DNA of 64,000 nucleotides from Candidatus Gastranaerophilales bacterium (GCA_944323285.1 CALURV010000024.1:38893-102892), one strand, 5' to 3'. Counted from the first letter of the stretch, positions 10,249-37,491 are shown. Notes: generated by a model not told the origin, from the letters alone. Numbers and translations are program-made.

Positions 10249-12132
10249 ATGACAGCTGAAAAAACATATACAGATGTAATAGATGAAATTAGAAGTCGAC
10301 TAGATATACTTGATGTAGTTCAATCAAGGGTAGTGTTAAAGAAAAAAGGTAATAATTATTGGGGTTGTTGTCCTTTTCATAATGAAAAAACACCTTCATT
10401 TTGTGTTAATGTTCAAAAAGGAATTTTTAAGTGTTTTGGCTGTGGTGAAGGTGGCGATGCCATAAGCTTTTTGATGAAAATAAATAATCAATCCTTTAAT
10501 GATGTAATAAAAGATTTAGCTGTACAATTTGGTATTGAATTACCATCATATTCAGGAAATACAAAATCTGCTTCAGATGAAAAGCAAAAAGTAAAAGATT
10601 TACTTAAACAGGTTTGTGAATATTATAATAAAAACCTTTTAGAAAAAACGGAAGCAAAAAAAGCTGTTATTTACCTTGAAAAAAGAGGTATTAATATTGA
10701 TATTATAAATGAATACAAGTTAGGATATTCTGAGAAGAGTTATAATGACATTGTAAATCATTTTAAGAGTGAATATACTCCTGACATTATGGAAAAAGCA
10801 GGATTAATTATAAAAACCGAAAAGGGTGATTATATAGATAGATTTCGCCATAGAATTATGATTCCAATTAGAGATGAAAAAGGAGATGTAATAGCTTTTG
10901 GCGCTAGAGCTATAGAAGATGGACAAAACCCAAAATATTTAAATTCACCGGATACTATTTTATATAATAAAAGCAGGATATTATATGGTATCAATGTTGC
11001 TAAAGATAAAATGATAGAAGAAGACTATGTAGTTATAATGGAAGGATATTTTGATGTAATTTCAGCTCAAGCTGCAGGATTAAAAAATACTGTTGCATCT
11101 TGCGGTACTGCTCTTACGGTCGATCATATTAGACTTATTGCTAAATATTCAAAATCAAGGAAAATATACTTGGCTTTTGATACTGATGAAGCTGGATTAA
11201 AAGCAACTCAAAGAAGTACAGAAGTAATAAAAGAAGCCTTCTCAGGACTTGGAAATTTAAAAATTTTTGATCAAACATATTCTTCACTATCAGATGATAA
11301 ATATACCTGTGAAATTAGAGTAATTGCACCATTAGGTAGTAAAGATCCAGATGAATATATTAGAGAGTTTGGAATTGAAGCATATAAAAAGTACATAAAA
11401 AAAGCTCCTTTATTGTTAGATTTCGAGATTAATCAGATATTGAAAGATTATAATTCTAATTTTTCTCCAACAGATAAGCTAAAATTAGTAAAAAAAATCA
11501 TGCCTTTAATCGAGGAAATTCCAAATAATATCGTTCAAAATGAATATATAAAGATTATTTCTGATAAAATCGATGTGGATGAAAAGGCCTTGATTAGGGA
11601 GATTAATAAGGTTAAAATGTCTCAAAATCTTGTAGAAAAACCAATAGATAGAATTGTAACAAAATCTTTAAATTATTGTGAAAAAGCACAAAAAAATTTA
11701 TTATGCTTGTTTCTAACTGGTGGAAGTAATACGGATGTAAATTATCTTAAAGAAGTTATAAAAAATGTTAAATTTATAGATAAAAATTTAATTATTATCA
11801 AAGAAGCAATTGACAAATTATCATATCGGATAAATAATGATGTGGAAAAATTAATTGATGCCCTGTATACACAATTTGCTGAGGATAATGAATTAAAGGA
11901 TATAATAACTGATTTAATATATATAGCAGATAGTTTTAAAAACCTTTCGGAGCGTGATTTTAAAGCTGCTGTATGGGATAATATCAACAGTATACAACAA
12001 TACAATTTTAATTGTGAAAAGCATGAATTAATGTCAAAATATAAGCAATTAGATGATGATGATATAGAGTCAATGCAATATCAGATGCAAGTACGTGAAA
12101 GAATAAGAAATAAACATAAAATCGGAGAATAA
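10249..12132 (+). CDS. dnaG: DNA primase
   Basis: Zn-finger [12 protein letters not shown]...CFGCGEGGD, primase core, and [12 protein letters not shown] / DTDEAG. Starts immediately after the upstream stop. Confidence 0.95.
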
Positions 12133-12137
12133 ATTCA

Positions 12138-13247
12138 ATGAGCAAAAAGAAAATTTCAGATTTATCGGTAGTCGGAATATTAGAAGAAGAAGAAACAATG
12201 GAAAATGAATCTAGTGATGCATCAAGTATTATAATGATGACAGAACCCGAAGCTATTAGTAGTGACGGAATGGATGTAATCATTAGTTCTGAAAGAAATA
12301 AAATTATCGATACAATGGAAAATGAAGATTTATTTGCAAATGATATTGCAGATGAAGTAGATGACGAAGATGTTTCTATTACTGATGCACTTTTACCAAA
12401 AGGTGTTTCATTTGATGATCCAGTTAGAATGTATTTAAGAGAAATAGGCCGAATAAAGCTTTTAACAGCGGATCAAGAAATAGACTTAGCTAAGAAAATT
12501 ATTCAAGGTGGAAATGCAGGGGTAATTGCAAAGAGAAAATTGGTTCAAGCTAATTTAAGGCTTGTAGTAAGTATTGCTAAAAAATATGTTGGTAGAGGCA
12601 TGTTATTTTTAGATCTTATACAAGAAGGAAACCTTGGTTTAATAAGAGCTGCTGAAAAATTTGATCACGAAAGAGGATATAAGTTCTCTACATATGCTAC
12701 TTGGTGGATACGTCAAGCTATTACAAGAGCTATAGCAGATCAGGCAAGAACTATAAGAATACCTGTCCATATGGTTGAAACTATAAATAAACTTAAAAAA
12801 GTAACAAGAAAACTAGCTCAAGAGCTTTCAAGAAAACCGACTGAAGAAGAATTAGCTGTTGAGATGAATATATCAGTTCCTAAATTAAGAGAAATAATAA
12901 AAGTGGCTCAAGAACCATTATCATTAGAAACACCTATAGGTAAAGAAGAAGATTCAAGACTTGGTGACTTCATTGAAGATAAAGATGCTGATGCACCAGT
13001 AAAAACCGTTGCTCAGGAACTTTTAAGAGAAGATTTAGCTGAAGTATTAAGCGGTTTATCTCCAAGAGAAAGAGATGTTCTTCGTTTGAGATTTGGTATG
13101 GATGATGGCAGACAACGTACTTTAGAAGAAGTTGGTCAATTATTTGGTGTTACAAGAGAACGTATAAGACAAATTGAAGCTAAAGCGCTTAGAAAACTTA
13201 GACATCCAAATAGAAGTAAACGATTAAAAGAGTATATAGAAGTTTAA
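12138..13247 (+). CDS. rpoD: primary RNA polymerase sigma-70 factor
   Basis: Region 2 ([31 protein letters not shown]), region 3 and region 4.2 ([18 protein letters not shown]). Follows dnaG as in the macromolecular-synthesis operon. Confidence 0.95.
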
Positions 13248-28688: not shown

Positions 28689-29423
28689 ATGAAAAGTTCT
28701 AATCCAATATTAAGAGATAATTTATTAGAGCAAACTTACGCATTAACTGAAAGGCCTATGAGTATTTCAGGTACTATGAACAAACTATTAATTCTTTCTT
28801 TAATAATGCTAGCTGGTGCTGCAGCTGTGTTTTATCAATTCTCATTGCAACATTTTGATTTTGTAAATATGATTATGACAGCAGGTATAATTGTAGGTTT
28901 TATTTGCGCGATAATTATTGCTTTTAAAGCAGATTTAACCAAATATCTTGCACCGATTTATGCTTTTTCTCAAGGTGCAGTTTTGTCAGGCATTTCTTGC
29001 TTTTTCGAAAAAGTTTATCCGGGTATTGTTATTCAGGCAATTTCAATGACTTTAATTGTGGTATTTTCAATGGCCATGCTTTTTAAATTAGGTGCTATTA
29101 AAGCAACTGAAAAATTTAAAGCTGTAATTTTTATTGCGACACTGGCTATTTTAATTTTTTATGTTGTATCTTTTATAATGTCTTTTTTTGGTGCATTGCC
29201 GACTTATTTTTATTCAAATTCCAATATTTCAATTGTAATCAATGTTGTTATTGCTGTTATTGCTGCATTAAATTTAATTATTGATTTCGATTTTATTGAA
29301 AAAGGAGTACAAGCTCCGCTCCCTTCTTCTTATGAATGGTATGGTGCTTTTGGACTTTTGGTTACAATCTTATGGCTTTACATTGAAATACTAAGACTTT
29401 TGTCTAGATTAAGAAATAGATAA
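28689..29423 (+). CDS. Bax-inhibitor-1/YccA-family membrane protein
   Basis: Start set to the ATG preceded by GGAGGTAAT, which removes the overlap with eno. MKSSNPILR... N-terminus followed by about 7 TM helices, typical of the BI-1-like family. Confidence 0.65.
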   Translation: MKSSNPILRDNLLEQTYALTERPMSISGTMNKLLILSLIMLAGAAAVFYQFSLQHFDFVNMIMTAGIIVGFICAIIIAFKADLTKYLAPIYAFSQGAVLSGISCFFEKVYPGIVIQAISMTLIVVFSMAMLFKLGAIKATEKFKAVIFIATLAILIFYVVSFIMSFFGALPTYFYSNSNISIVINVVIAVIAALNLIIDFDFIEKGVQAPLPSSYEWYGAFGLLVTILWLYIEILRLLSRLRNR

Positions 29424-29426
29424 TTT

Positions 29427-30305
29427 ATGAAAATTATAAAAATTATATTTATTAATATTCTTTTTCTTATTCTTTTATTAGGTATTTTTGAATTGATTTT
29501 ATTTTTTTATTATTCTAACAAAGAACCTAATGAAAAATATCATATTGGAAAAATACCTTATATTAATTTATTAACTCCCGACAGGTTTAGACCGCCTGTT
29601 GGAGTTAATTATAATAAAAGACCAATTATAATTTTAGGTTGTTCTTTTGCTTTTGGTCAATATCTAAATGAAAATCAAACTTTAGGCTATAAATTAGCGA
29701 ATTATTCTCATAGGCCTGTTTATAATTATGCAGTTTGTGGTAAAGGTATTCAAAATGCTTTATTTATATTGCAAAATAAGTTATATGATACATCTATTAA
29801 AGATCCAGAATTTATAATTTATGTTATGATGAGTGATCATATTCGTCGATTATATACTAATGTTTGTATGGGTGATTTTGTCGGTTATCCTGATTATAGA
29901 ATTGATAAGAATGGTAATATTAAGTTGTATAGAGATTATTTCCCAGTATATAGACAGTTTTATACTTTTTATTATTTTAATAATTTATTTTATAAATATA
30001 TATTGAGAAAAAATTATAAACGCCATAATTTGTATATTAATGCTTATTTTGAAGAAATGAATAAAGAAATTAAAAAACAATTTCCTAATATAAAATTTGT
30101 AATATTAATTTATGGAGATAAAAATAATTTTGGGCTTGATTTATCTAAATTAGAAAAAGATGGATTTATAATTTTGCAAACAGATGAAATCTCTGGTGTT
30201 AATCTTTTACAACGTAAATATCAATTATCTGAAACGGATACTCACCCAACCGAAGAAGCTTGGGATATTATTATTCCAGCTTTAGTAAATAGGTTATGTT
30301 TATAA
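29427..30305 (+). CDS. membrane-anchored SGNH/GDSL-like hydrolase or acyltransferase, paralogue 1
   Basis: N-terminal TM anchor, block-I-like IIILGCSFAFGQ, Gly block YNYAVCGKGIQ, C-terminal TDTHPTEEAW (Asp/His block). Same 292-aa length as the next gene and alignable with it throughout. Confidence 0.5.
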   Translation: MKIIKIIFINILFLILLLGIFELILFFYYSNKEPNEKYHIGKIPYINLLTPDRFRPPVGVNYNKRPIIILGCSFAFGQYLNENQTLGYKLANYSHRPVYNYAVCGKGIQNALFILQNKLYDTSIKDPEFIIYVMMSDHIRRLYTNVCMGDFVGYPDYRIDKNGNIKLYRDYFPVYRQFYTFYYFNNLFYKYILRKNYKRHNLYINAYFEEMNKEIKKQFPNIKFVILIYGDKNNFGLDLSKLEKDGFIILQTDEISGVNLLQRKYQLSETDTHPTEEAWDIIIPALVNRLCL

Positions 30306-30306
30306 A

Positions 30307-31185
30307 ATGAAATTTGTAAAAATTTTACTTATAAATGTTATTTTATTTATTTTGCTACTTTTTTTATTAGAAATGTGTCTTTTTATCTCATTTAAAAGGA
30401 CGCATCCTAATATTAAATATCATTTAAAAAGTATAAGTTATGAAGATTATTTAAAAACAGTGGTTCAAAGATTTCCAGTTGGGTTAAATTATAAAAAAAG
30501 ACCAATTATTTTATCAGGATGTTCTTATATATATGGTTTGTATTTTGAAGGTATTCATACTCCACAGTATAAATTGTCTGAGTTATCAAAAAGACCAGTT
30601 TATAATTATGCTATTCCAGGTAAAGGTATACAACATACTTTATATGTTCTCAGTCATAAACTGTACGATAAAAACATAAATAATCCTGAATATTTTATAT
30701 ATTTTATGATTAGTGATCATATTAGAAGAATGTATTCTCCTGTGATGTTTAATGATTGTGTTGCTAATCCAGTCTTTAATGTTGATAAATATGGGCATGT
30801 TATTGAGTATAAAGGGAACTATCCTCTATACAAAAAAACATTCACTTATTATTATTTTTTTAATATTTATTATTTTAACTTTTTCAATAAGGATTATATT
30901 ACTCATAGAAAAAATATAGTAGCTTATTTTAGAGAAATGAATAGACTTTTAAAAAATTCTTTTCCAGACATAAAACTGGTCATAATTTTATATGATGATT
31001 TATCACCATATGATATAGTTTTTTCTTCTTTAAAAAATGATGGTATTATTGTATATAAAGCAAATGAATTGACAGATGTTAACTTGATTAATTCTAAATA
31101 TTGGATTTCAAAGACAGATCCCCATCCTAATGAAGCTGCTTGGGATGTTCTTATGCCAAAATTAGTTGAAAAATTAAACTTATAG
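30307..31185 (+). CDS. membrane-anchored SGNH/GDSL-like hydrolase or acyltransferase, paralogue 2
   Basis: Same architecture: PIILSGCSYIYG, YNYAIPGKGIQ, TDPHPNEAAW. Starts 1 nt after the upstream stop. Confidence 0.5.
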   Translation: MKFVKILLINVILFILLLFLLEMCLFISFKRTHPNIKYHLKSISYEDYLKTVVQRFPVGLNYKKRPIILSGCSYIYGLYFEGIHTPQYKLSELSKRPVYNYAIPGKGIQHTLYVLSHKLYDKNINNPEYFIYFMISDHIRRMYSPVMFNDCVANPVFNVDKYGHVIEYKGNYPLYKKTFTYYYFFNIYYFNFFNKDYITHRKNIVAYFREMNRLLKNSFPDIKLVIILYDDLSPYDIVFSSLKNDGIIVYKANELTDVNLINSKYWISKTDPHPNEAAWDVLMPKLVEKLNL

Positions 31186-31313
31186 TTTATTTTTGTATGT
31201 ATTTTAGGTATAAAATCTAAAAATTTTATATTATCTTCATATTTTTTATCTGTAGAATCTGTAGAAAATATCTTGTGATGGATTAATATTTTATTATTGA
31301 CATTATTTTTATA

Positions 31314-32309
31314 TTAAAATCCGGCTATGTTTTCTTCTCTTGAGTGTTCGACTTCGCATTTTACTTGAAAAATTTGTCCATACAACTCGCATTTTAAGCC
31401 TATTTCTTTTGATGTTTTTAATGTGTATTGCATTAAATTATATATTGGTATTAAATCATTGTTTACATTATCCATAATCCATCTGAAATCAAGATTTAGT
31501 ACAACACTTTTTATTCCTATTTCTTTACATTTTTTTAGCCAAATTAAAATTTCTTCTTCTCTATCATTATATCCAGGAACAATTATATACTTGGCCTTTA
31601 CATAATCAGCATCTTTAGGTTGATTTTTTGCATATTCTTTTAAATTTTTCCAAACATCTTTGTATGAATTTACTTGCTTAACTTTTTTATGAGTTTCTTG
31701 TGTTCCAGCATCTATTGATACTAATACCCTAATTACTCCTTTTCTTAATCCTTTTATTATAGAATTACTTCTCTTTATAGCATTAGTATGAATAATAATT
31801 TTTCTGAAATCATTTTTAATGAATTCTTTTAAGAGTGATTCAAATTCACAATATATAGTTGGTTCTCCGCCTGCAAAATCAATAGTTCCTTCCTTTTTTA
31901 ATATGTTATTTTTTATCATATCTTTTATTAATGGCAGTACCTTATATGGTTTTGTATTTTCAAGAACATATTTATCTCTTGGAGCATCGCAATATATACA
32001 ATTTGAATTACACTGAACCCAGGGGGTTAATAATAAATAATCAATATAATCATCATTATTCCACTCTTTATATGCTATATTTACGCACTCTTTGCATAAT
32101 TCAGGACAAGAATTTTCTCTAAAGTTTTTCCTTAGTTCGCTTTTTATATTGAAAAATTCTTCCCAATTTATTTTTTCACCATGGTAGTTCTCATAAATTA
32201 TTGGTCTTCCGCCATGTCTTGGATTAAAATTATTACAAAATCTTATAGTGTTACAAGAATCAAGTACCATTCCGTGTTCTATATAGCTGCAACTTTCAAA
32301 TTTTTCCAC
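31314..32309 (-). CDS. radical SAM protein with N-terminal four-Cys (twitch/SPASM-like) domain, paralogue 1
   Basis: CNSNCIYC (CxxxCxxC) at aa 100-107, FAGGEPT, SIDAGTQETHKKVK. N-terminal conserved Cys at 7, 25, 72 and 75. GTG start preceded by AAGAGGGAAA. Confidence 0.85.
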   Translation of the reverse strand: MEKFESCSYIEHGMVLDSCNTIRFCNNFNPRHGGRPIIYENYHGEKINWEEFFNIKSELRKNFRENSCPELCKECVNIAYKEWNNDDYIDYLLLTPWVQCNSNCIYCDAPRDKYVLENTKPYKVLPLIKDMIKNNILKKEGTIDFAGGEPTIYCEFESLLKEFIKNDFRKIIIHTNAIKRSNSIIKGLRKGVIRVLVSIDAGTQETHKKVKQVNSYKDVWKNLKEYAKNQPKDADYVKAKYIIVPGYNDREEEILIWLKKCKEIGIKSVVLNLDFRWIMDNVNNDLIPIYNLMQYTLKTSKEIGLKCELYGQIFQVKCEVEHSREENIAGF

Positions 32310-32319
32310 ATTTCCCTCT

Positions 32320-33303
32320 TCATATTAATTTGTATTCTGTTGTTAAATACCTGAAATTATTGTAGTCAATTAAATTTAAATTTAATTCTCTTGATTTTTC
32401 AATTATGTATTTGCATAAATCAATTAAATATTGTGGGGTTGTTATATTGTTTTCTCTTAGCTTTTTGCAATATTCATTTTCTATATCTATAACAATAGAT
32501 TTTATACCATTTTTTATATTTAGTTCAAACCATTTGTCTATTTCTTCTTTATTTGTATTAATATCCGGTATTAATATATATTTAGTTTCAACAAAGTTCT
32601 TAGTAATATCTGTTTGAGCATTAGCATATTTTTTTACATTTTTCCAAAACTTATCAAAGCAATCAACTCTCTTAATTTTATTGTACATTTCTCTTGTGCC
32701 TGAATCTGCAGAAAGACAGACGTGCAATTTTTGTTCTTTTATCCCTCTTTCAATAGCTTTAGAAAACTTAATACCGGAAGAATGAACAGTAATTCTGTCT
32801 GCGCCATTTTTTAATAGTAACTTTATTAGTTCATCAAATTCTTCAAGTATTGTAGGTTCACCTCCGGCAAATGTTATTTCTCCTCCTGGTCTAAATAATT
32901 TCTTTTTAAATAAATCTTTTATTATAGGTAATACATTATAATGTTTTTTCTTTTGAAAATTCTTTTTATCCCAAGAAGTATAACAATATATACAATCACT
33001 GTTGCACCTTGTCCAGTGGTTAAAATGTATATAATTTATATATTTTTCATTATCATCCCATTCCCTGTTTGAAAGATTAAAACACCCTTCACATCTTCTG
33101 TCTATTATATTTTCTTTATTTTCATTAATAAATTTTTGTTTTAAGTCGATGATATTGTCCCAAGTTAATCCTTTTCCATTATAATTTTCTTTTATATATA
33201 ACCTGCCGCCACCTTTATGGCAACATAAGCAACACATTTCAATATGATCATTTTCGAAACTTAAACCATGTAATATCCAGTGGCAGCTAGTATATTTATT
33301 CAT
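32320..33303 (-). CDS. radical SAM protein with N-terminal four-Cys (twitch/SPASM-like) domain, paralogue 2
   Basis: CNSDCIYC, FAGGEPT, SADSGTREMYNKIK. N-terminal Cys at 7, 24/25, 71 and 74. The ATG overlaps the upstream stop (TAATG). Confidence 0.85.
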   Translation of the reverse strand: MNKYTSCHWILHGLSFENDHIEMCCLCCHKGGGRLYIKENYNGKGLTWDNIIDLKQKFINENKENIIDRRCEGCFNLSNREWDDNEKYINYIHFNHWTRCNSDCIYCYTSWDKKNFQKKKHYNVLPIIKDLFKKKLFRPGGEITFAGGEPTILEEFDELIKLLLKNGADRITVHSSGIKFSKAIERGIKEQKLHVCLSADSGTREMYNKIKRVDCFDKFWKNVKKYANAQTDITKNFVETKYILIPDINTNKEEIDKWFELNIKNGIKSIVIDIENEYCKKLRENNITTPQYLIDLCKYIIEKSRELNLNLIDYNNFRYLTTEYKLI

Positions 33304-34310
33304 TATTGGTGCTCTTTCTCTTTATGAAATTTCATCATGTGCTCTGCTCTTTCATATAGTTCGTACTTTAATCCAAGTTGCTCAGCTTTTTCTTTTGCAT
33401 AATTAAATATTTCAAAAATTTTATCATCTACATTTTCTCTTCGTGCATAAAACCACTTTGATTCTATTTCGTGTAATACAAAATTAATTCCATTCTCTTT
33501 TGATTTTATGAGCCAAGTATCTATTTCTTCTTTAATATCATTTTCACCGGGAATCACAATATATTTTGTCTTTACCGCATACTTATCTTTTTGCTTTGAA
33601 GCATAATTTTTAAGATTTTTCCAAACTTTATCGTACGAATCTACTCCTTTTATTTTTCTATGCATTTCTTTTGTTCCTGAATCAACAGAAACAATTAAGT
33701 CAACACATCCTTCTTTTAGTCCTTTTTCGATTGCTTTTGAATATAAAATGCAAGATGAGTGAATTCTGATTAATGGAAATCCAAAATCTATAAATATATT
33801 AAGAAGTTTTTCAAACTCTTTTAATAAAGTAACTTCACCGCCGCCAAAACTTACGTGTCCATTTGGTCTTAATATATCTCTTTTTATCATATCTTTTAAG
33901 ATTGGAAGGAAGTTATAATTTTTAAAACTATTATATCGTTTTTTATCTGTCATTGTATGACAATATGAACATCTTGAATTACATTTTGTCCAATAATCAA
34001 GATTTATCATACTTATCTTTGTATGATTGTCATCCCAATCTTTTTCTTCTAAGAATATGCAACCTTCACATTTTGGATATATTTTCCCACTTTTGAAGAC
34101 ATCTTTCATTTGTTTCTTAAATTCAAATACTTTTTCCCAATTTATTGGTTTCCCTTTATAGTTATCTTCAATTATTGTATTACCGCCGCCCTTTGCACTA
34201 TACAAACAGCATACTTTATATGCATCTATATCAAAATTTATTCCAGATTCTATCCAATAACAACTTTTATAGCGCAAAATTATTCCTCTTCTCATTAATA
34301 ATTTTATCAT
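33303..34310 (-). CDS. radical SAM protein with N-terminal four-Cys (twitch/SPASM-like) domain, paralogue 3
   Basis: CNSRCSYC, FGGGEVT, SVDSGTKEMHRKIK. Alignment with the paralogues and an AGAGGAA SD favour a TTG start at 34277 rather than the ATG at 34310. Confidence 0.85.
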   Translation of the reverse strand: MIKLLMRRGIILRYKSCYWIESGINFDIDAYKVCCLYSAKGGGNTIIEDNYKGKPINWEKVFEFKKQMKDVFKSGKIYPKCEGCIFLEEKDWDDNHTKISMINLDYWTKCNSRCSYCHTMTDKKRYNSFKNYNFLPILKDMIKRDILRPNGHVSFGGGEVTLLKEFEKLLNIFIDFGFPLIRIHSSCILYSKAIEKGLKEGCVDLIVSVDSGTKEMHRKIKGVDSYDKVWKNLKNYASKQKDKYAVKTKYIVIPGENDIKEEIDTWLIKSKENGINFVLHEIESKWFYARRENVDDKIFEIFNYAKEKAEQLGLKYELYERAEHMMKFHKEKEHQ

Positions 34311-34320
34311 AACTCTACTT

Positions 34321-34352
34321 AAAATAAAAAGACATTCTATTGAATGTCTTTT
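34321..34352 (-). terminator. intrinsic terminator overlapping the stop codon of the 443-aa gene
   Basis: Minus strand reads AAGACATTC-AATA-GAATGTCTT followed by TTTATTTT. The stop codon lies in the loop. Confidence 0.65.
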
Positions 34353-35668
34353 TTATTTTGTTTTTTTATATCTTCTGCAACATGAAATTTTGTAGTTCCT
34401 GTTTTCATTTCTCTATATTTGTATATGAGTTTTGGAATTACATATCCAAGAACTAGGCAGGATATTCCAATATTTGCCATAACAGAGCTTACCTTAAGTG
34501 CTTTTGTTTTTGCTAAAAATTTATTAACTGGTTCTTTTGCTGCTTGGAAGTTTTTATCAATATTTAGAAGTTGTTGTGCTAAAGCTTCTATTTCTTTTAT
34601 ATCAATATATTTTGAGGTATCTATTATATTTGCTCCATTTGTATCTTTTAAAGTTTGTATAAATTTTGACTTCTTTGCTGCTTGAACTATTATATTATTT
34701 GGATTATTTATAAGAAAATTTAATTTTTCCGTTAAAGATTTATCTTTTTTAGGCAATTGAGCAACATCTTTTGCTATTTTACCATTTAATAGTGCGTCTG
34801 CTAATTTATTATCCATTAATACATCAATTTTTAAATCTATAGGTTTGTGGAAGAATTTATCAGCAGCTTTATTTATACCTTTTTCTATTAAATTTCCAAA
34901 CCCATATATAAAGAATAAAAATCCGCCTTCTTTTATTGCATGTTCAAAAAATTCTGTTTTATTTCTTGAACATGCAAGTCTTTCTGTTGTAATTCCTGCA
35001 TCTATAATTTTCATATTGTGCACAGGGTTAAACATTATTGCTTCACCTAAATTTTTACCTATTCCTTTGAATGTTGGATTTTTACTTGAATGGTATTCAT
35101 TAAATTCTGAAAAAATATTCTTTTCTTCATTTTGTTTTATTTTATGGTCTTTTATTGACTTCATTTCATCAATAACAGTATTTTTTGTTCTTTTTTGTTT
35201 TGTTTTAGTTAAGAGAAAAAATGTAGCAAGAGTTAAGGCTGTTGCTGCGATGATTTTACCTTTATATAAATTTTTAGCTAGCTTTCCTCCATCTTTCAGA
35301 CAATCTTTTATAGCTGATTGTACAGTTTGACTCTTTGTATTGGCCATTATACCCTTTGCATTTTCTTTTGCCCAGGCAGAATATTCTTTATTCGCTATTA
35401 TTCTTGGATCTACTTGTGGATTTATTTTCCCTATTTTATATGCAGTATAATCTATTAATTTTTTATAAAATGGTATTCCACCAATCCAAATAGCTTGTGT
35501 ACCAAACTCATCAATTGCTCTATCCATTCCTTCGATGGGACCACCTTCTTTAAATGATTTATATGTTAAACTTGATGAATCAACTCCATCTTTTATCATT
35601 ATTGGTATTAATGATTCTTTGTTTCCTAATGTTGAAACTATTTTTGTTGTTATTGATTGTATCGACAT
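34337..35668 (-). CDS. hypothetical membrane protein (443 aa), no recognisable domain
   Basis: Long ORF with SD AAAGGAAA and predicted TM segments (IIAATALTLATFFLL, GGFLFFIYGFGNLI, VMANIGISCLVLGYVIPKLI). I recognise no catalytic motif. Confidence 0.6.
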   Translation of the reverse strand: MSIQSITTKIVSTLGNKESLIPIMIKDGVDSSSLTYKSFKEGGPIEGMDRAIDEFGTQAIWIGGIPFYKKLIDYTAYKIGKINPQVDPRIIANKEYSAWAKENAKGIMANTKSQTVQSAIKDCLKDGGKLAKNLYKGKIIAATALTLATFFLLTKTKQKRTKNTVIDEMKSIKDHKIKQNEEKNIFSEFNEYHSSKNPTFKGIGKNLGEAIMFNPVHNMKIIDAGITTERLACSRNKTEFFEHAIKEGGFLFFIYGFGNLIEKGINKAADKFFHKPIDLKIDVLMDNKLADALLNGKIAKDVAQLPKKDKSLTEKLNFLINNPNNIIVQAAKKSKFIQTLKDTNGANIIDTSKYIDIKEIEALAQQLLNIDKNFQAAKEPVNKFLAKTKALKVSSVMANIGISCLVLGYVIPKLIYKYREMKTGTTKFHVAEDIKKQNKKDIQ

Positions 35669-35687
35669 ATTATTTCCTTTTTATTTG

Positions 35688-35771
35688 CTACAAGCCCCAA
35701 GCTAGATTCATTAATTTGACAATTGGGGCAATTGTCTTTTTTATTCTTTCTTCTCGTCGGATATTTTTCAT
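35688..35771 (-). CDS. candidate 27-codon micro-ORF (MKNIRREERIKKTIAPIVKLMNLAWGL)
   Basis: GGAG-TATAAA-ATG is the identical SD and spacer seen at the bona fide gene at 23137. The stop lies 19 nt before the ATG of the 443-aa gene. Not in the supplied ORF track (too short). Confidence 0.35.
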   Translation of the reverse strand: MKNIRREERIKKTIAPIVKLMNLAWGL

Positions 35772-35791
35772 TTTATACTCCTTCTTGTACT

Positions 35792-35824
35792 AAAAAACCT
35801 TCTAATTTAAATTAGAAGGCTTTT
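35792..35824 (-). terminator. intrinsic terminator after rplI (palindromic, could act in both directions)
   Basis: CCTTCTAATTT/AAATTAGAAGG perfect 22-nt palindrome, followed by T6 on the minus strand. Confidence 0.8.
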
Positions 35825-35940
35825 AATATTTATACACATAAAAATCGTACGATTATATCGTAAAGCCTCCTTTATTTACATAACGTCGATTTTGAATGTT
35901 TAACATGATTTACCCTTTTCTTTCTTTAGTATATCACAAA

Positions 35941-36435
35941 TTATTCTTCTGTTTTAGTTTCTTCTTCTATTTCTTCTTTTAATACTTCAGAAGCTGTAAC
36001 ACTAACACCTAATGAAACTTTAACTTTTGATGTTAATTTAATTTGCATGTTGAATTTACCAAGTTTATTAATAGGTGCATCTAAAGAAATAGTTTTTCTA
36101 TCTACTTCAATGCCTGTTTTATTTTTAATTTCTTCAGCAAGCTTCTTTGTTGTAATTGCACCAAATAATTTACCACTTTCACCTGCTTTTGCAGAAAATT
36201 CAATTACTTCTAAGGCTTCTATTTTTTTAGCTAATTCTAAAGCTTCAGCGTGTAACTTTTCTTGTTTCGCTTTAATTCTTGCAATATTTTTTTCTCTATT
36301 TTCTTTTGCACCTTTTGTTGCTATTTCAGCGAAATTTTGTGGTAATAAAAAATTTCTGGCATAGCCATCCTTTACATTAACTATATCGCCTGCTTCTCCA
36401 ATATTTTGTACGTCTTTTTTTAGAATTACTTCCAT
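35941..36435 (-). CDS. rplI: 50S ribosomal protein L9
   Basis: MEVILKKDVQNIGEAGDIVNVKDGYARNFLLPQ is the canonical L9 N-domain, followed by a long helix and C-domain with an acidic tail. Confidence 0.9.
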   Translation of the reverse strand: MEVILKKDVQNIGEAGDIVNVKDGYARNFLLPQNFAEIATKGAKENREKNIARIKAKQEKLHAEALELAKKIEALEVIEFSAKAGESGKLFGAITTKKLAEEIKNKTGIEVDRKTISLDAPINKLGKFNMQIKLTSKVKVSLGVSVTASEVLKEEIEEETKTEE

Positions 36436-36554
36436 TTTATGTCTCCTTAATATAATTATCGTCTTATAGTATTAAAATAATAATAAAAACATAATAAATT
36501 GTCACGTTTATATTAATAATTTTAACCGTGAAGTTGTTTTTGAGTTATTTAATA

Positions 36555-36755
36555 CTACTGGCCAATAACTGCATTAAGGTCTTCAACCATTTTCTCAGGG
36601 TCTATTCCATGAACTTTTGCTCCTGCTTCTAAATTTTCAAATCTTGCTGCTGCACAGCCTATACATCCTAATCCGTATTTTTGAAATACTTCTATTGTCT
36701 CAGGATATTGTTGTACTATTTCTATCAATCCCATTTCTTTTGTAATTTTTGACAT
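36555..36755 (-). CDS. DUF1858 / hybrid-cluster-protein-associated redox disulfide domain protein
   Basis: 66 aa; IVQQYPETIEVFQKYGLGCIGCAAARFENLEAGAKVHGID with the CxxC pair typical of this small family. Confidence 0.7.
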   Translation of the reverse strand: MSKITKEMGLIEIVQQYPETIEVFQKYGLGCIGCAAARFENLEAGAKVHGIDPEKMVEDLNAVIGQ

Positions 36756-36891
36756 GTTTATTTGACCTTTCCTTGATTATTTAATATTTATCATTAAAAT
36801 TATACAACAAGATTAGTATAGGTGTATATGTTTAGATTCTTATTTGATATTTTTTGTAAAGATACTACTATTGGTCTTTGTCAAATTGAAA

Positions 36892-36941
36892 AGAAAAAAA
36901 ATATTAGAATATTCAAAAATAAATATTCTAATATCCTTTTT
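36892..36941 (-). terminator. intrinsic terminator after the bifunctional-nuclease gene
   Basis: ATATTAGAATATT / AATATTCTAATAT 13-bp stem, followed by T9 on the minus strand. Confidence 0.65.
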
Positions 36942-36981
36942 AATAACAAAGATAATAGTCAATATTTTTTTAATAGTTTTA

Positions 36982-37491
36982 CTATTGATCAGACTGCTTA
37001 TCGTCTTTAAGCAATTTTTCAAAGTCAGAAGGTTTTATACTTTGTATAAAATTTCTAAATTCTTCCGATTCTTCTTCATCTTTGGCACTATCACAAGAAA
37101 CACTTCCATCTGCTAAAACTTTTGCAGATACAAATATTGGTGCATCAACTCTAATTGCTACAGCAATTGCATCTGATGGTCTTGCATCTATTGTTATTTC
37201 ATTTTCATTTTCATTTGTCAGATAAATTGTTGAGTAATATGTTTCTTTTTCTACATCATTTATTTCAATTCTGTTAACAGTATATCCAGTTTTTTCTATT
37301 ATATCTATAATTAAATCGTGTGTCATTGGCCTTAGAACTTTTATATTTTCTATTTTTCTTATTATTGCACTGGCTTCTGCTGATCCTATCCATATTGGAA
37401 GTGCTTTTCTATTTTCTTTATCATTTAAAACAATAATAGGAGAACCACTTGCAGTATCTATTGCTATACCCATAACTTTCATTTCAATCAT
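36982..37491 (-). CDS. bifunctional nuclease family protein (BFN/DUF151)
   Basis: VMGIAIDTASGSPIIVLNDKENRKALPIWIGSAEASAI...RPMTHDL...ARPSDAIAVAIR are DUF151 hallmarks. SD AAGGAA. Confidence 0.75.
   Translation of the reverse strand: MIEMKVMGIAIDTASGSPIIVLNDKENRKALPIWIGSAEASAIIRKIENIKVLRPMTHDLIIDIIEKTGYTVNRIEINDVEKETYYSTIYLTNENENEITIDARPSDAIAVAIRVDAPIFVSAKVLADGSVSCDSAKDEEESEEFRNFIQSIKPSDFEKLLKDDKQSDQ

Follow-up and report, generated by a model that had tools for sequence, protein, structure and literature searches.

Do three genes for radical S-adenosylmethionine (radical-SAM) enzymes and the two genes for SGNH-like proteins that converge on them encode one pathway, or do they lie side by side by accident? 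We addressed this question in a stretch of 64,000 nucleotides, hereafter the window, from a Candidatus Gastranaerophilales genome (GCA_944323285.1 CALURV010000024.1:38893-102892). Here, three radical-SAM genes (R1, R2, and R3, together the trio), two SGNH-like genes (S1 and S2), a gene for a 443-residue protein (M443), and a 27-codon micro open reading frame (uORF B) lie between a BI-1-family gene and rplI. The Gastranaerophilales are non-photosynthetic relatives of cyanobacteria from animal guts; essentially none is known to be in culture, which leaves genomes as the only source of information on their chemistry. We conclude that the region combines three units, each inherited independently (the trio, the S genes, and the M443 unit), and is not one cassette. 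The best explanation of the whole, to which we assign a probability of roughly 0.5, is that within this composite the trio successively modifies one putative substrate, which is exported and then undergoes extracytoplasmic ester chemistry.

The trio was compared across 52 genome loci seeded with R2 (locus labels begin with L). Approximately 39 Gastranaerophilales species share the order adk-map-BFN-rplI-(leader/uORF B/M443)-R1-R2-R3-(dehydrogenase)-(S)-BI1-eno-TPR. Across 39 loci, the median identity to the window proteins was 78.9% for R1, 78.2% for R3, and 72.8% for R2, compared with 68.6% for enolase, 74.8% for adk, 65.4% for BI1, and 67.4% for M443. This conservation and synteny show that the trio has been passed on vertically and is strongly constrained. 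Each of R1, R2, and R3 also has its own 1:1 orthologues (pairwise identity among the three, 36 to 43%), and thus the paralogy is ancient and not a recent case of the tandem duplication that a preliminary description of this DNA had proposed. The same constraint and orthology contradict the earlier view of an accessory cassette wedged between housekeeping genes, given that the trio sits in conserved synteny in ∼39 species and is as conserved as the housekeeping genes themselves. We conclude that R1, R2, and R3, ancient paralogues that encode cytoplasmic enzymes, make up one operon with coupled translation and vertical descent. Conservation above that of enolase implies that the product of the trio is important and defines the lineage.

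Both flanks of the trio are variable. The slot between R3 and the BI-1-family gene is empty in six loci (e.g., L007 and L015) and in 18 loci holds a gene for a 326-residue D-2-hydroxyacid dehydrogenase (Pfam 2-Hacid_dh_C, 1.3e-48), on the same strand as R3 and 5 nucleotides (nt) after it, which may belong to the R operon in the species that carry it. Three loci (L006, L008, and L011) have the dehydrogenase plus one S gene, and the window has two S genes. The closest species (L006) is collinear with the window at 84 to 88% nucleotide identity across the region, except that its dehydrogenase gene (12003-12973) is replaced in the window by S2 and a spacer (30306-31301); S2 lies on the opposite strand to the dehydrogenase that it replaces. 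The slot between rplI and R1 usually contains the unit of leader, uORF B, and M443. It is empty in L025 and L035, contains an XRE regulator and a pilin-like gene in L034 and L040, and contains a transporter in L023. An apparent accessory cassette can thus be conserved core synteny between two variable slots, a lesson for annotation.

M443 and the micro-ORF, which the preliminary description had counted as part of the system, separate from the trio in both directions. In two loci, M443 is found near rplI with uORF B upstream (L115, 5876-7353; L116, 5877-7389), and the trio is ∼400 kb away on the same 1.87-Mb scaffold. Conversely, M443 is absent from four loci that keep R genes (L025, L034, L035, and L040). 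We accordingly rejected M443 as a partner of the trio; leader RNA, uORF B, and M443 are a separate unit tied to rplI and not part of the radical-SAM system.

Judged by their motifs, R1 to R3 constitute an uncharacterized radical-SAM subfamily with four conserved N-terminal cysteines. All three matched Pfam PF04055 (75.3 bits for R3, 63.9 for R2, and 64.9 for R1, versus a cutoff of 29.5), in agreement with the first assignment of three radical-SAM paralogues. Among 74 paralogues, C100-x3-C104-x2-C107 and G147-G148-E149 were invariant, corresponding to the CX3CX2C/GGE radical-SAM core. What sets the family apart is a domain of ∼95 residues, N-terminal to the core in R1 to R3, with four cysteines (C7, C24, C71, and C74, conserved at 81 to 99%). 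Among 1.84 billion representative proteins, clustered at 50% identity, a search with a family profile recovered 552 clusters at an E value of ≤1e-30 and 1,816 at ≤1e-10. The AlphaFold2 (AF2) model of R2 had a predicted local distance difference test (pLDDT) score of 92.8, and every listed Foldseek match was a radical-SAM enzyme with a probability of 1.0. These neighbors were a mixture of peptide, sugar, nucleotide, and lipid enzymes (SkfB, SuiB, BlsE, PFL-AE, DesII, anSME, viperin, and GDGT-MAS), so the fold confirms the superfamily and gives no pointer to a substrate. Searches of PDB sequences with the R proteins returned core-level matches only, the best being GDGT-MAS, BlsE, and SkfB. In the NCBIfam scan, no family came near its cutoff for R1 to R3 (best, viperin, MoaA, PFL-AE, and Tes, with 40 to 55 bits versus 180 to 450); weak matches to the peptide maturases WgkB and StsB were also seen.

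The N-terminal domain of R1 to R3 probably binds an auxiliary iron-sulfur cluster, in the manner of an N-terminally placed twitch or half-SPASM domain, as its cysteine pattern suggests. R1 to R3 themselves had no Pfam SPASM match (PF13186), and R3 scored 28 bits with NF033640 (N_Twi_rSAM), in a match confined to the core, versus a cutoff of 170. Three more distant paralogues from the gene arrays described below (L053:4944-5975(-), L056:6619-7662(-), and L048:13052-14119(-)) do carry a Pfam SPASM match (E value of about 1e-14) at residues 8 to 72, ahead of the core, and so have the two domains in the opposite order to that usually seen. These SPASM-positive paralogues are collinear with NF033640 (51 to 58 bits versus the cutoff of 170), and in a MAFFT alignment C7, C24, C71, and C74 of R1 to R3 line up with them. 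Because hhalign aligned the core only, twitch homology of the R1 to R3 domain is a reasonable inference and is not demonstrated. Like SPASM/twitch enzymes such as BtrN, BlsE, DesII, SkfB, and anSME and the NF033640 family, the R family combines a radical-SAM core with a cysteine-rich, putatively auxiliary domain, with the four conserved cysteines of R1 to R3 in an equivalent position; unlike them, R3 and the array paralogues score far below curated cutoffs. We found no N-terminal or permuted SPASM/twitch radical-SAM enzyme described in the literature, and the comparison with NF033640 therefore yields no functional lead.

S1 and S2 are candidate serine hydrolases or acyltransferases of the SGNH fold, anchored at the N terminus, according to structure prediction. 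S1 has a single transmembrane segment (residues 1 to 31), and by the positive-inside rule we infer that the catalytic domain of S1 and S2 faces outward. The AF2 model of S1 had a pLDDT of 95.4, and all 29 Foldseek matches in the PDB at an E value of ≤0.001 were SGNH/GDSL esterase or acyltransferase proteins, including Est2A, CE2, TesA (TMt, 0.72), and the SGNH domain of OafB. The anchor and the exclusively SGNH-type significant matches uphold the initial description of the two 292-residue proteins as membrane-anchored and SGNH-like. Sequence searches were silent: S1 and S2 had no Pfam or NCBIfam match at an E value of ≤0.1, Lipase_GDSL families included, and a profile search of S1 against PDB sequences gave nothing significant (best E value, 0.02, to a designed protein). 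Among 59 S-family members, G71-C72-S73, G77, R141, and H273-P274 were invariant and N100 was nearly so, and the Asp of the DxxH motif was not conserved.

The predicted fold of S1 thus resembles that of SGNH/GDSL hydrolases and SGNH-type O-acyltransferases (CE2/Est2A, TesA, and the OafB SGNH domain). SGNH-type enzymes acting on envelope polymers also include PatB/Ape, DltD, and AlgJ/X. With the envelope O-acyltransferases and SGNH/GDSL enzymes, the S family shares an N-terminal anchor and a catalytic domain that is probably outside the cytoplasm, and its invariant Ser and His may correspond to the catalytic residues that SGNH/GDSL proteins have in blocks I and V. It differs from them in that block I reads G-C-S rather than G-D-S, in lacking a conserved Asp before the putative catalytic His, and in having an invariant Arg141. 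The search with S1 returned 74 homologues, the few taxon-labeled ones being from metagenome-assembled genomes (MAGs) of the Gastranaerophilales type, and the S family looks lineage restricted. S genes often occur in tandem (2 to 5 copies), with varied neighbors.

The strongest evidence that the pairing of R and S genes can be functional comes from sister clades, where the same R and MatE genes recur with an exported serine hydrolase beside them, in either of two unrelated folds. Orthologues in the sister-clade loci that we checked share 55 to 66% identity with R1 and 50 to 57% with R2. An operon of an R gene (A), R1, and R2 is followed by a MatE-type transporter gene in L001, L002, and L046, and the same MatE orthologue is fused to R2 in L045. 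Four separate loci or locus groups (L110/111, L112-114, L117, and L118/119) have operons of three R genes, MatE, and, directly after MatE, an alpha/beta hydrolase of 266 to 276 residues; all five genes of L118 overlap or abut. Both hydrolases that we translated (L110 and L112) had an N-terminal signal or anchor. In L061, one strand carries R-R1-R2-R-S-MatE, with the S-type SGNH protein in the hydrolase position. These operons lend real support to the general scheme put forward in the preliminary description, in which radical chemistry in the cytoplasm is combined with ester chemistry outside it. Fusions within the family were of several kinds, namely, R2-like::MatE (807 residues, L045 9989-12412; 763 residues, P0318), tandem R::R (643 to 653 residues; P0315, P0316, and P0317), and methyltransferase::R::R (993 residues, P0328).

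R genes have also been expanded into arrays of 10 to 13 paralogues within 12 to 21 kb (L048 and L051-L056), with alternating orientation and very short spacers. Several array-bearing MAGs also carry the core trio (e.g., Lapin-015__bin9, L026 and L054; Lapin-004__bin83, L042 and L055). The arrays include or adjoin S genes and genes for family 2 glycosyltransferases (GT2), a PIG-L deacetylase, and an ApbA-like reductase, along with large polytopic membrane proteins of 517 to 521 residues with no Pfam match. S genes are inside or beside R-paralogue arrays in L051, L053, L056, L059, and L065. The clearest functional context for an S-family member is L059 (3328-10930), which encodes an R-like radical-SAM protein, a family 9 glycosyltransferase (GT9) of the heptosyltransferase type, an AlgX/DHHW SGNH-like protein, an MBOAT protein, a GT2, and an S protein and, from this gene content, looks like a glycan O-acylation locus. 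Other relevant gene orders are GT2, R, and R::MatE in L045 and S, carbamoyltransferase, and MatE in L063; in addition, the L118 transporter has a weak Polysacc_synt match besides MatE. The arrays and L059 point towards envelope-glycan chemistry for the expanded R paralogues at least, and the substrate of the conserved trio is not established thereby.

In the pathway that we propose, largely from the sister clades, R1 to R3 would successively modify one cytoplasmic small or amphiphilic substrate, e.g., a nucleotide-sugar, glycan, or lipid-type precursor. The product would then cross the inner membrane, in sister clades via a MATE transporter joined to the R2 orthologue by translational coupling or by fusion, and an exported or anchored serine hydrolase would remove or transfer an acyl or ester group outside the cytoplasm. 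The hydrolase role would be played by the alpha/beta-fold protein in most sister clades, by the S-type SGNH protein in L061, and by S1/S2 in this genome. A comparison can be drawn with colibactin, in which the MATE transporter ClbM and the membrane-anchored periplasmic hydrolase ClbP take part. By analogy, the R loci may likewise couple cytoplasmic enzymes genetically to a MATE transporter and an anchored or exported serine hydrolase. In contrast to colibactin, the R loci have no scaffold genes for nonribosomal peptide or polyketide synthesis, their hydrolase has an alpha/beta or SGNH fold rather than being an S12 peptidase, and no MATE gene is nearby in the window. The resemblance would therefore be one of possible working logic and not of family membership.

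Several observations weigh against this pathway in the window itself. The trio and SGNH genes do co-localize in related genomes, as the preliminary description implied they should, only sporadically: an S gene is adjacent in 3 of ∼39 related loci and in the window. S1 and S2 run towards the trio from the opposite strand, as part of the BI-1 transcription unit rather than of the R operon. In distant genomes, an S homologue is ∼400 kb from the trio. A metagenome search with a profile built from a 12-sequence subset gave 44 S-seeded loci, only 3 to 4 of which had an R-family gene in the DNA retrieved (many contigs were short), and a multicopy family such as R should turn up beside S genes now and then by chance. 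The window's own clade has no MatE or alpha/beta hydrolase gene within 10 kb of the trio, and no substrate-defining gene is conserved next to it. The mixed structural neighbors of the R2 model indicate no substrate, and the hhalign comparison of R2-type with SPASM-positive paralogues covers the radical-SAM core only. Given the sparse R-S linkage, the lack of a nearby MatE gene, and the converging orientation of S1/S2, we consider functional coupling of R and S genes in this genome to have about even odds. We are somewhat more hesitant about the fuller proposal of an undescribed three-step radical-SAM pathway that combines a subfamily with an N-terminal auxiliary cluster, dedicated MATE export, and a finishing step by an anchored serine hydrolase whose fold has been swapped (alpha/beta versus SGNH); we advance it tentatively, at a little below an even chance.

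The alternative that survives best is accidental adjacency. The trio would then be a self-contained core set for cofactor synthesis, RNA or protein modification, or lipid chemistry, S1 and S2 would be unrelated esterases in a recombination-prone slot, and M443 would be unrelated as well. The strong conservation of R1 to R3, which resembles that of a housekeeping function, would suit this explanation, as would the variable slots on both trio flanks. So would the distribution of the S family, which is multicopy, often tandem, and found among many different neighbors; most S loci have no nearby R gene and most trio loci no S gene. Set against this are the exported serine hydrolases of two unrelated folds coupled to R and MatE genes in five locus groups, with overlapping junctions in L118, the R-MatE fusions that tie the enzymes to export, and the S genes embedded in several R-paralogue arrays. 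On this evidence, we regard accidental adjacency as unlikely, though a serious contender.

Surface-glycan (lipopolysaccharide or capsule) tailoring is a narrower form of the proposed pathway, with the R proteins modifying nucleotide-sugars or glycan intermediates and the S proteins O-acylating or de-O-acylating the glycan outside the membrane. The twitch-type enzymes BtrN, DesII, and BlsE act on sugars, and BlsE and DesII are among the closest sequence or structure matches of the R proteins; on the S side, the matches of S1 include the SGNH domain of OafB, an O-antigen acetyltransferase. The array context is also suggestive, with GT2, PIG-L, ApbA-like, and polytopic membrane proteins flanking or mixed with the R paralogues, as are the gene orders of L059, L045, and L063 and the weak Polysacc_synt match of the L118 transporter. 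However, no glycosyltransferase or sugar-nucleotide gene adjoins the trio in ∼39 loci, the transporter is of the MatE type and not a Wzx-type flippase, and the strong conservation of the trio is unlike that of glycan-tailoring genes, which are usually variable. We therefore consider this narrower version improbable.

It is far less probable still that one of the micro-ORFs encodes the precursor of a RiPP (a peptide made by the ribosome and then modified) matured by R1 to R3. The peptide maturases SkfB and SuiB among the best Foldseek matches, the weak NCBIfam matches to WgkB and StsB, and a conserved C-terminal WGL motif in uORF B would fit a RiPP pathway. We nevertheless rejected it: uORF B co-occurs with M443 and not with the trio, being far from the trio in L115/L116 and missing in L025, in L035, and in every sister-clade R operon, and ORF A, a second short ORF in the leader, shows RNA-type and not coding-type conservation and behaves as RNA. 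In addition, R1 to R3 have neither a RiPP recognition element nor a C-terminal SPASM domain in the Pfam scan or the AF2 model, and no conserved small ORF was seen in the R operons or packed arrays, for which no systematic search was made.

Three further candidates were rejected. The prokaryotic viperin (pVip) and MoaA models scored best with R1 and R2 among the named models of NCBIfam and PADLOC and match the N-terminal half of the core; R1 and R2 differ from them in scoring 41 to 62 bits versus cutoffs of ≥180, with half of each model covered, and from pVip in lying in conserved synteny and not in a defense island. A viperin or defense role thus falls on scores of 41 to 55 bits versus 180, partial PADLOC matches, and core synteny. 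A mobile island or cassette is incompatible with the same placement of the trio in ∼39 species and a GC content like that of the flanks, the S genes alone being patchy. A phage or plasmid origin fails because IMG/VR yielded a single real relative and PLSDB yielded none.

The gene combination matched no characterized cluster in Pfam, NCBIfam, and PADLOC scans or in the literature, as the preliminary description had stated. Hidden Markov model scans of all seven proteins gave superfamily-level matches for R1 to R3 and nothing for S1, S2, M443, and the micro-ORF. The literature offered nothing relevant on radical SAM in Gastranaerophilales or Melainabacteria, a paper on the synthase of membrane-spanning lipids dealing with different, larger enzymes. 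The enzymes are all of known superfamilies; uncharacterized are the R subfamily, the family of S1 and S2, and the logic of the operons, on none of which we found any literature. The R family would add to radical-SAM enzymology through its putative N-terminal auxiliary-cluster domain and its fusions to each other or to MATE. If the proposed pathway is true, arrays of at least 10 paralogues per genome could yield a lineage-specific repertoire of envelope or secreted molecules. The coupling of R enzymes, exporter, and exported hydrolase is a concrete unit for heterologous expression, with the five-gene L118 operon as the best candidate. The trio is a good target in an uncultured lineage, and no surprising mechanism is demonstrated.

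The features of the region are listed in Table 1; the genes, junctions, and terminators of the preliminary description were all present at matching coordinates, including the intrinsic terminator ahead of the R genes.

Table 1. Features between the BI-1-family gene and rplI, in window coordinates
Feature	Position	Strand	Description
BI-1-family gene (context)	28689..29423	+	Pfam BaxI_1, 1.4e-65, full length
S1	29427..30305	+	N-terminally anchored SGNH-fold protein, putative extracytoplasmic esterase/acyltransferase; 292 aa
S2	30307..31185	+	Second S-family paralogue; 292 aa
R3	31314..32309	-	Third radical-SAM paralogue, GTG start, cytoplasmic; PF04055, 8.3e-21
R2	32320..33303	-	Second radical-SAM paralogue; PF04055, 2.7e-17
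R1	33303..34277	-	First, most conserved radical-SAM paralogue; PF04055, 1.3e-17; mechanical ORF to 34310
Terminator-like hairpin	34326..34353	-	12-bp stem and T-run, between M443 and R1; overlaps M443 stop codon
M443	34337..35668	-	443-aa protein, Lys-rich (15% K), C-terminally anchored
uORF B	35688..35771	-	27-codon micro-protein gene, conserved, strong Shine-Dalgarno, immediately upstream of M443
Conserved leader	35793..35906	-	Downstream of rplI, upstream of uORF B; outside the coordinates of the preliminary description
rplI	35941..36435	-	

The junctions were read from the sequence. Gaps of 3 nt (BI-1 to S1) and 1 nt (S1 to S2) separate the plus-strand genes, and the BI-1 gene heads the transcription unit of S1 and S2 (pairwise identity, 45%); a BI1-S arrangement recurs in L006, L008, and L011. 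On the minus strand, R1 and R2 overlap in TAATG, and between R2 and R3 a 10-nt gap, AGAGGGAAAT, contains a Shine-Dalgarno sequence and is followed by the GTG start. The most likely start codon of R1 is the TTG at 34277 and not the ATG at 34310, because the resulting 324-residue form dominates public gene calls. This TTG has an AGAGGA Shine-Dalgarno sequence, and the N terminus that it gives matches those of R2 and R3. It leaves a spacer of 59 nt with the terminator-like hairpin and TGATAAAAT, an extended -10-like motif. All ORFs are real genes, as each has many homologues (R2, 267; S1, 74; M443, 226). The GC content was 0.23 to 0.28 across the region, the same as in the flanks, with no anomaly in composition, and no integrase or transposase ORF stood out among those of the window.

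M443 does have a membrane segment, as first described, and is not polytopic: there is one clear transmembrane segment at the C terminus (residues 393 to 415) and a weaker hydrophobic stretch near residue 140. It matched nothing in Pfam, NCBIfam, or PADLOC, and none of its 226 homologues has a Pfam domain; the few named ones are from Gastranaerophilales or Cyanobacteria MAGs. For the region as a whole, the MAGs with homologues bore the labels Candidatus Gastranaerophilales, "Cyanobacteria bacterium SIG29," or Vampirovibrio, which are Melainabacteria of the gut. In every M443-bearing locus examined, uORF B is 15 to 25 nt upstream of M443. Codon statistics indicate that uORF B is a real micro-protein gene, its variability by codon position (0.13/0.11/0.28) having the third-position excess of coding sequence. 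The product has a basic N terminus and the C terminus ...PFVKLMNL[IV]WGL-stop, and the ORF is conserved in ∼28 loci with a strong Shine-Dalgarno sequence. A hairpin inside uORF B, GACAATTGCCCCAATTGTC, appears to be kept with compensatory change in relatives.

The leader comprises the 17-codon ORF A (35853-35906), a structured RNA at about 35841-35893, and a terminator (35793-35824), and is absent wherever M443 is absent. ORF A, MLNIQNRRYVNKGGFTI, has a nearly invariant ATG start and two invariant Arg codons (CGA CGU). Its variability is flat across codon positions (0.12/0.15/0.15), which suggests constraint at the level of RNA rather than coding. In the RNA, an outer helix (AAAAUCG/CGAUUUU) encloses an inner hairpin (UACGAU/AUCGUA), for which L007 and L041 have the compensatory replacement CUUUAU/AUAAAG. 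Pairing is 100% in the terminator (GCCUUCU...AGAAGGC), which has 4 compensatory pairs and an unusually conserved sequence, and 96% in P2. GGAGGC, invariant in the loop, can pair with the terminator 5' arm (95.5% of cells paired, no double changes). By these pairings, the leader looks like an attenuator; Rfam gave no match in 31000-37000.

Six loci (L032, L035, L038, L044, L046, and L050) are titled "uncultured Muribaculaceae bacterium" yet carry the whole block of Gastranaerophilales synteny or its R-MatE or pyrG-R variants, with 57 to 93% protein identity. They are probably taxonomically mislabeled or chimeric bins. In L047 (466-4283) and L050 (8370-11960), the end of pyrG (CTP synthase) lies within 2 nt of, or is overlapped by, the start of an R cluster. 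This adjacency is intriguing because viperin and MoaA, the best named matches of R1 and R2, use nucleotides, and it may represent a single lineage.

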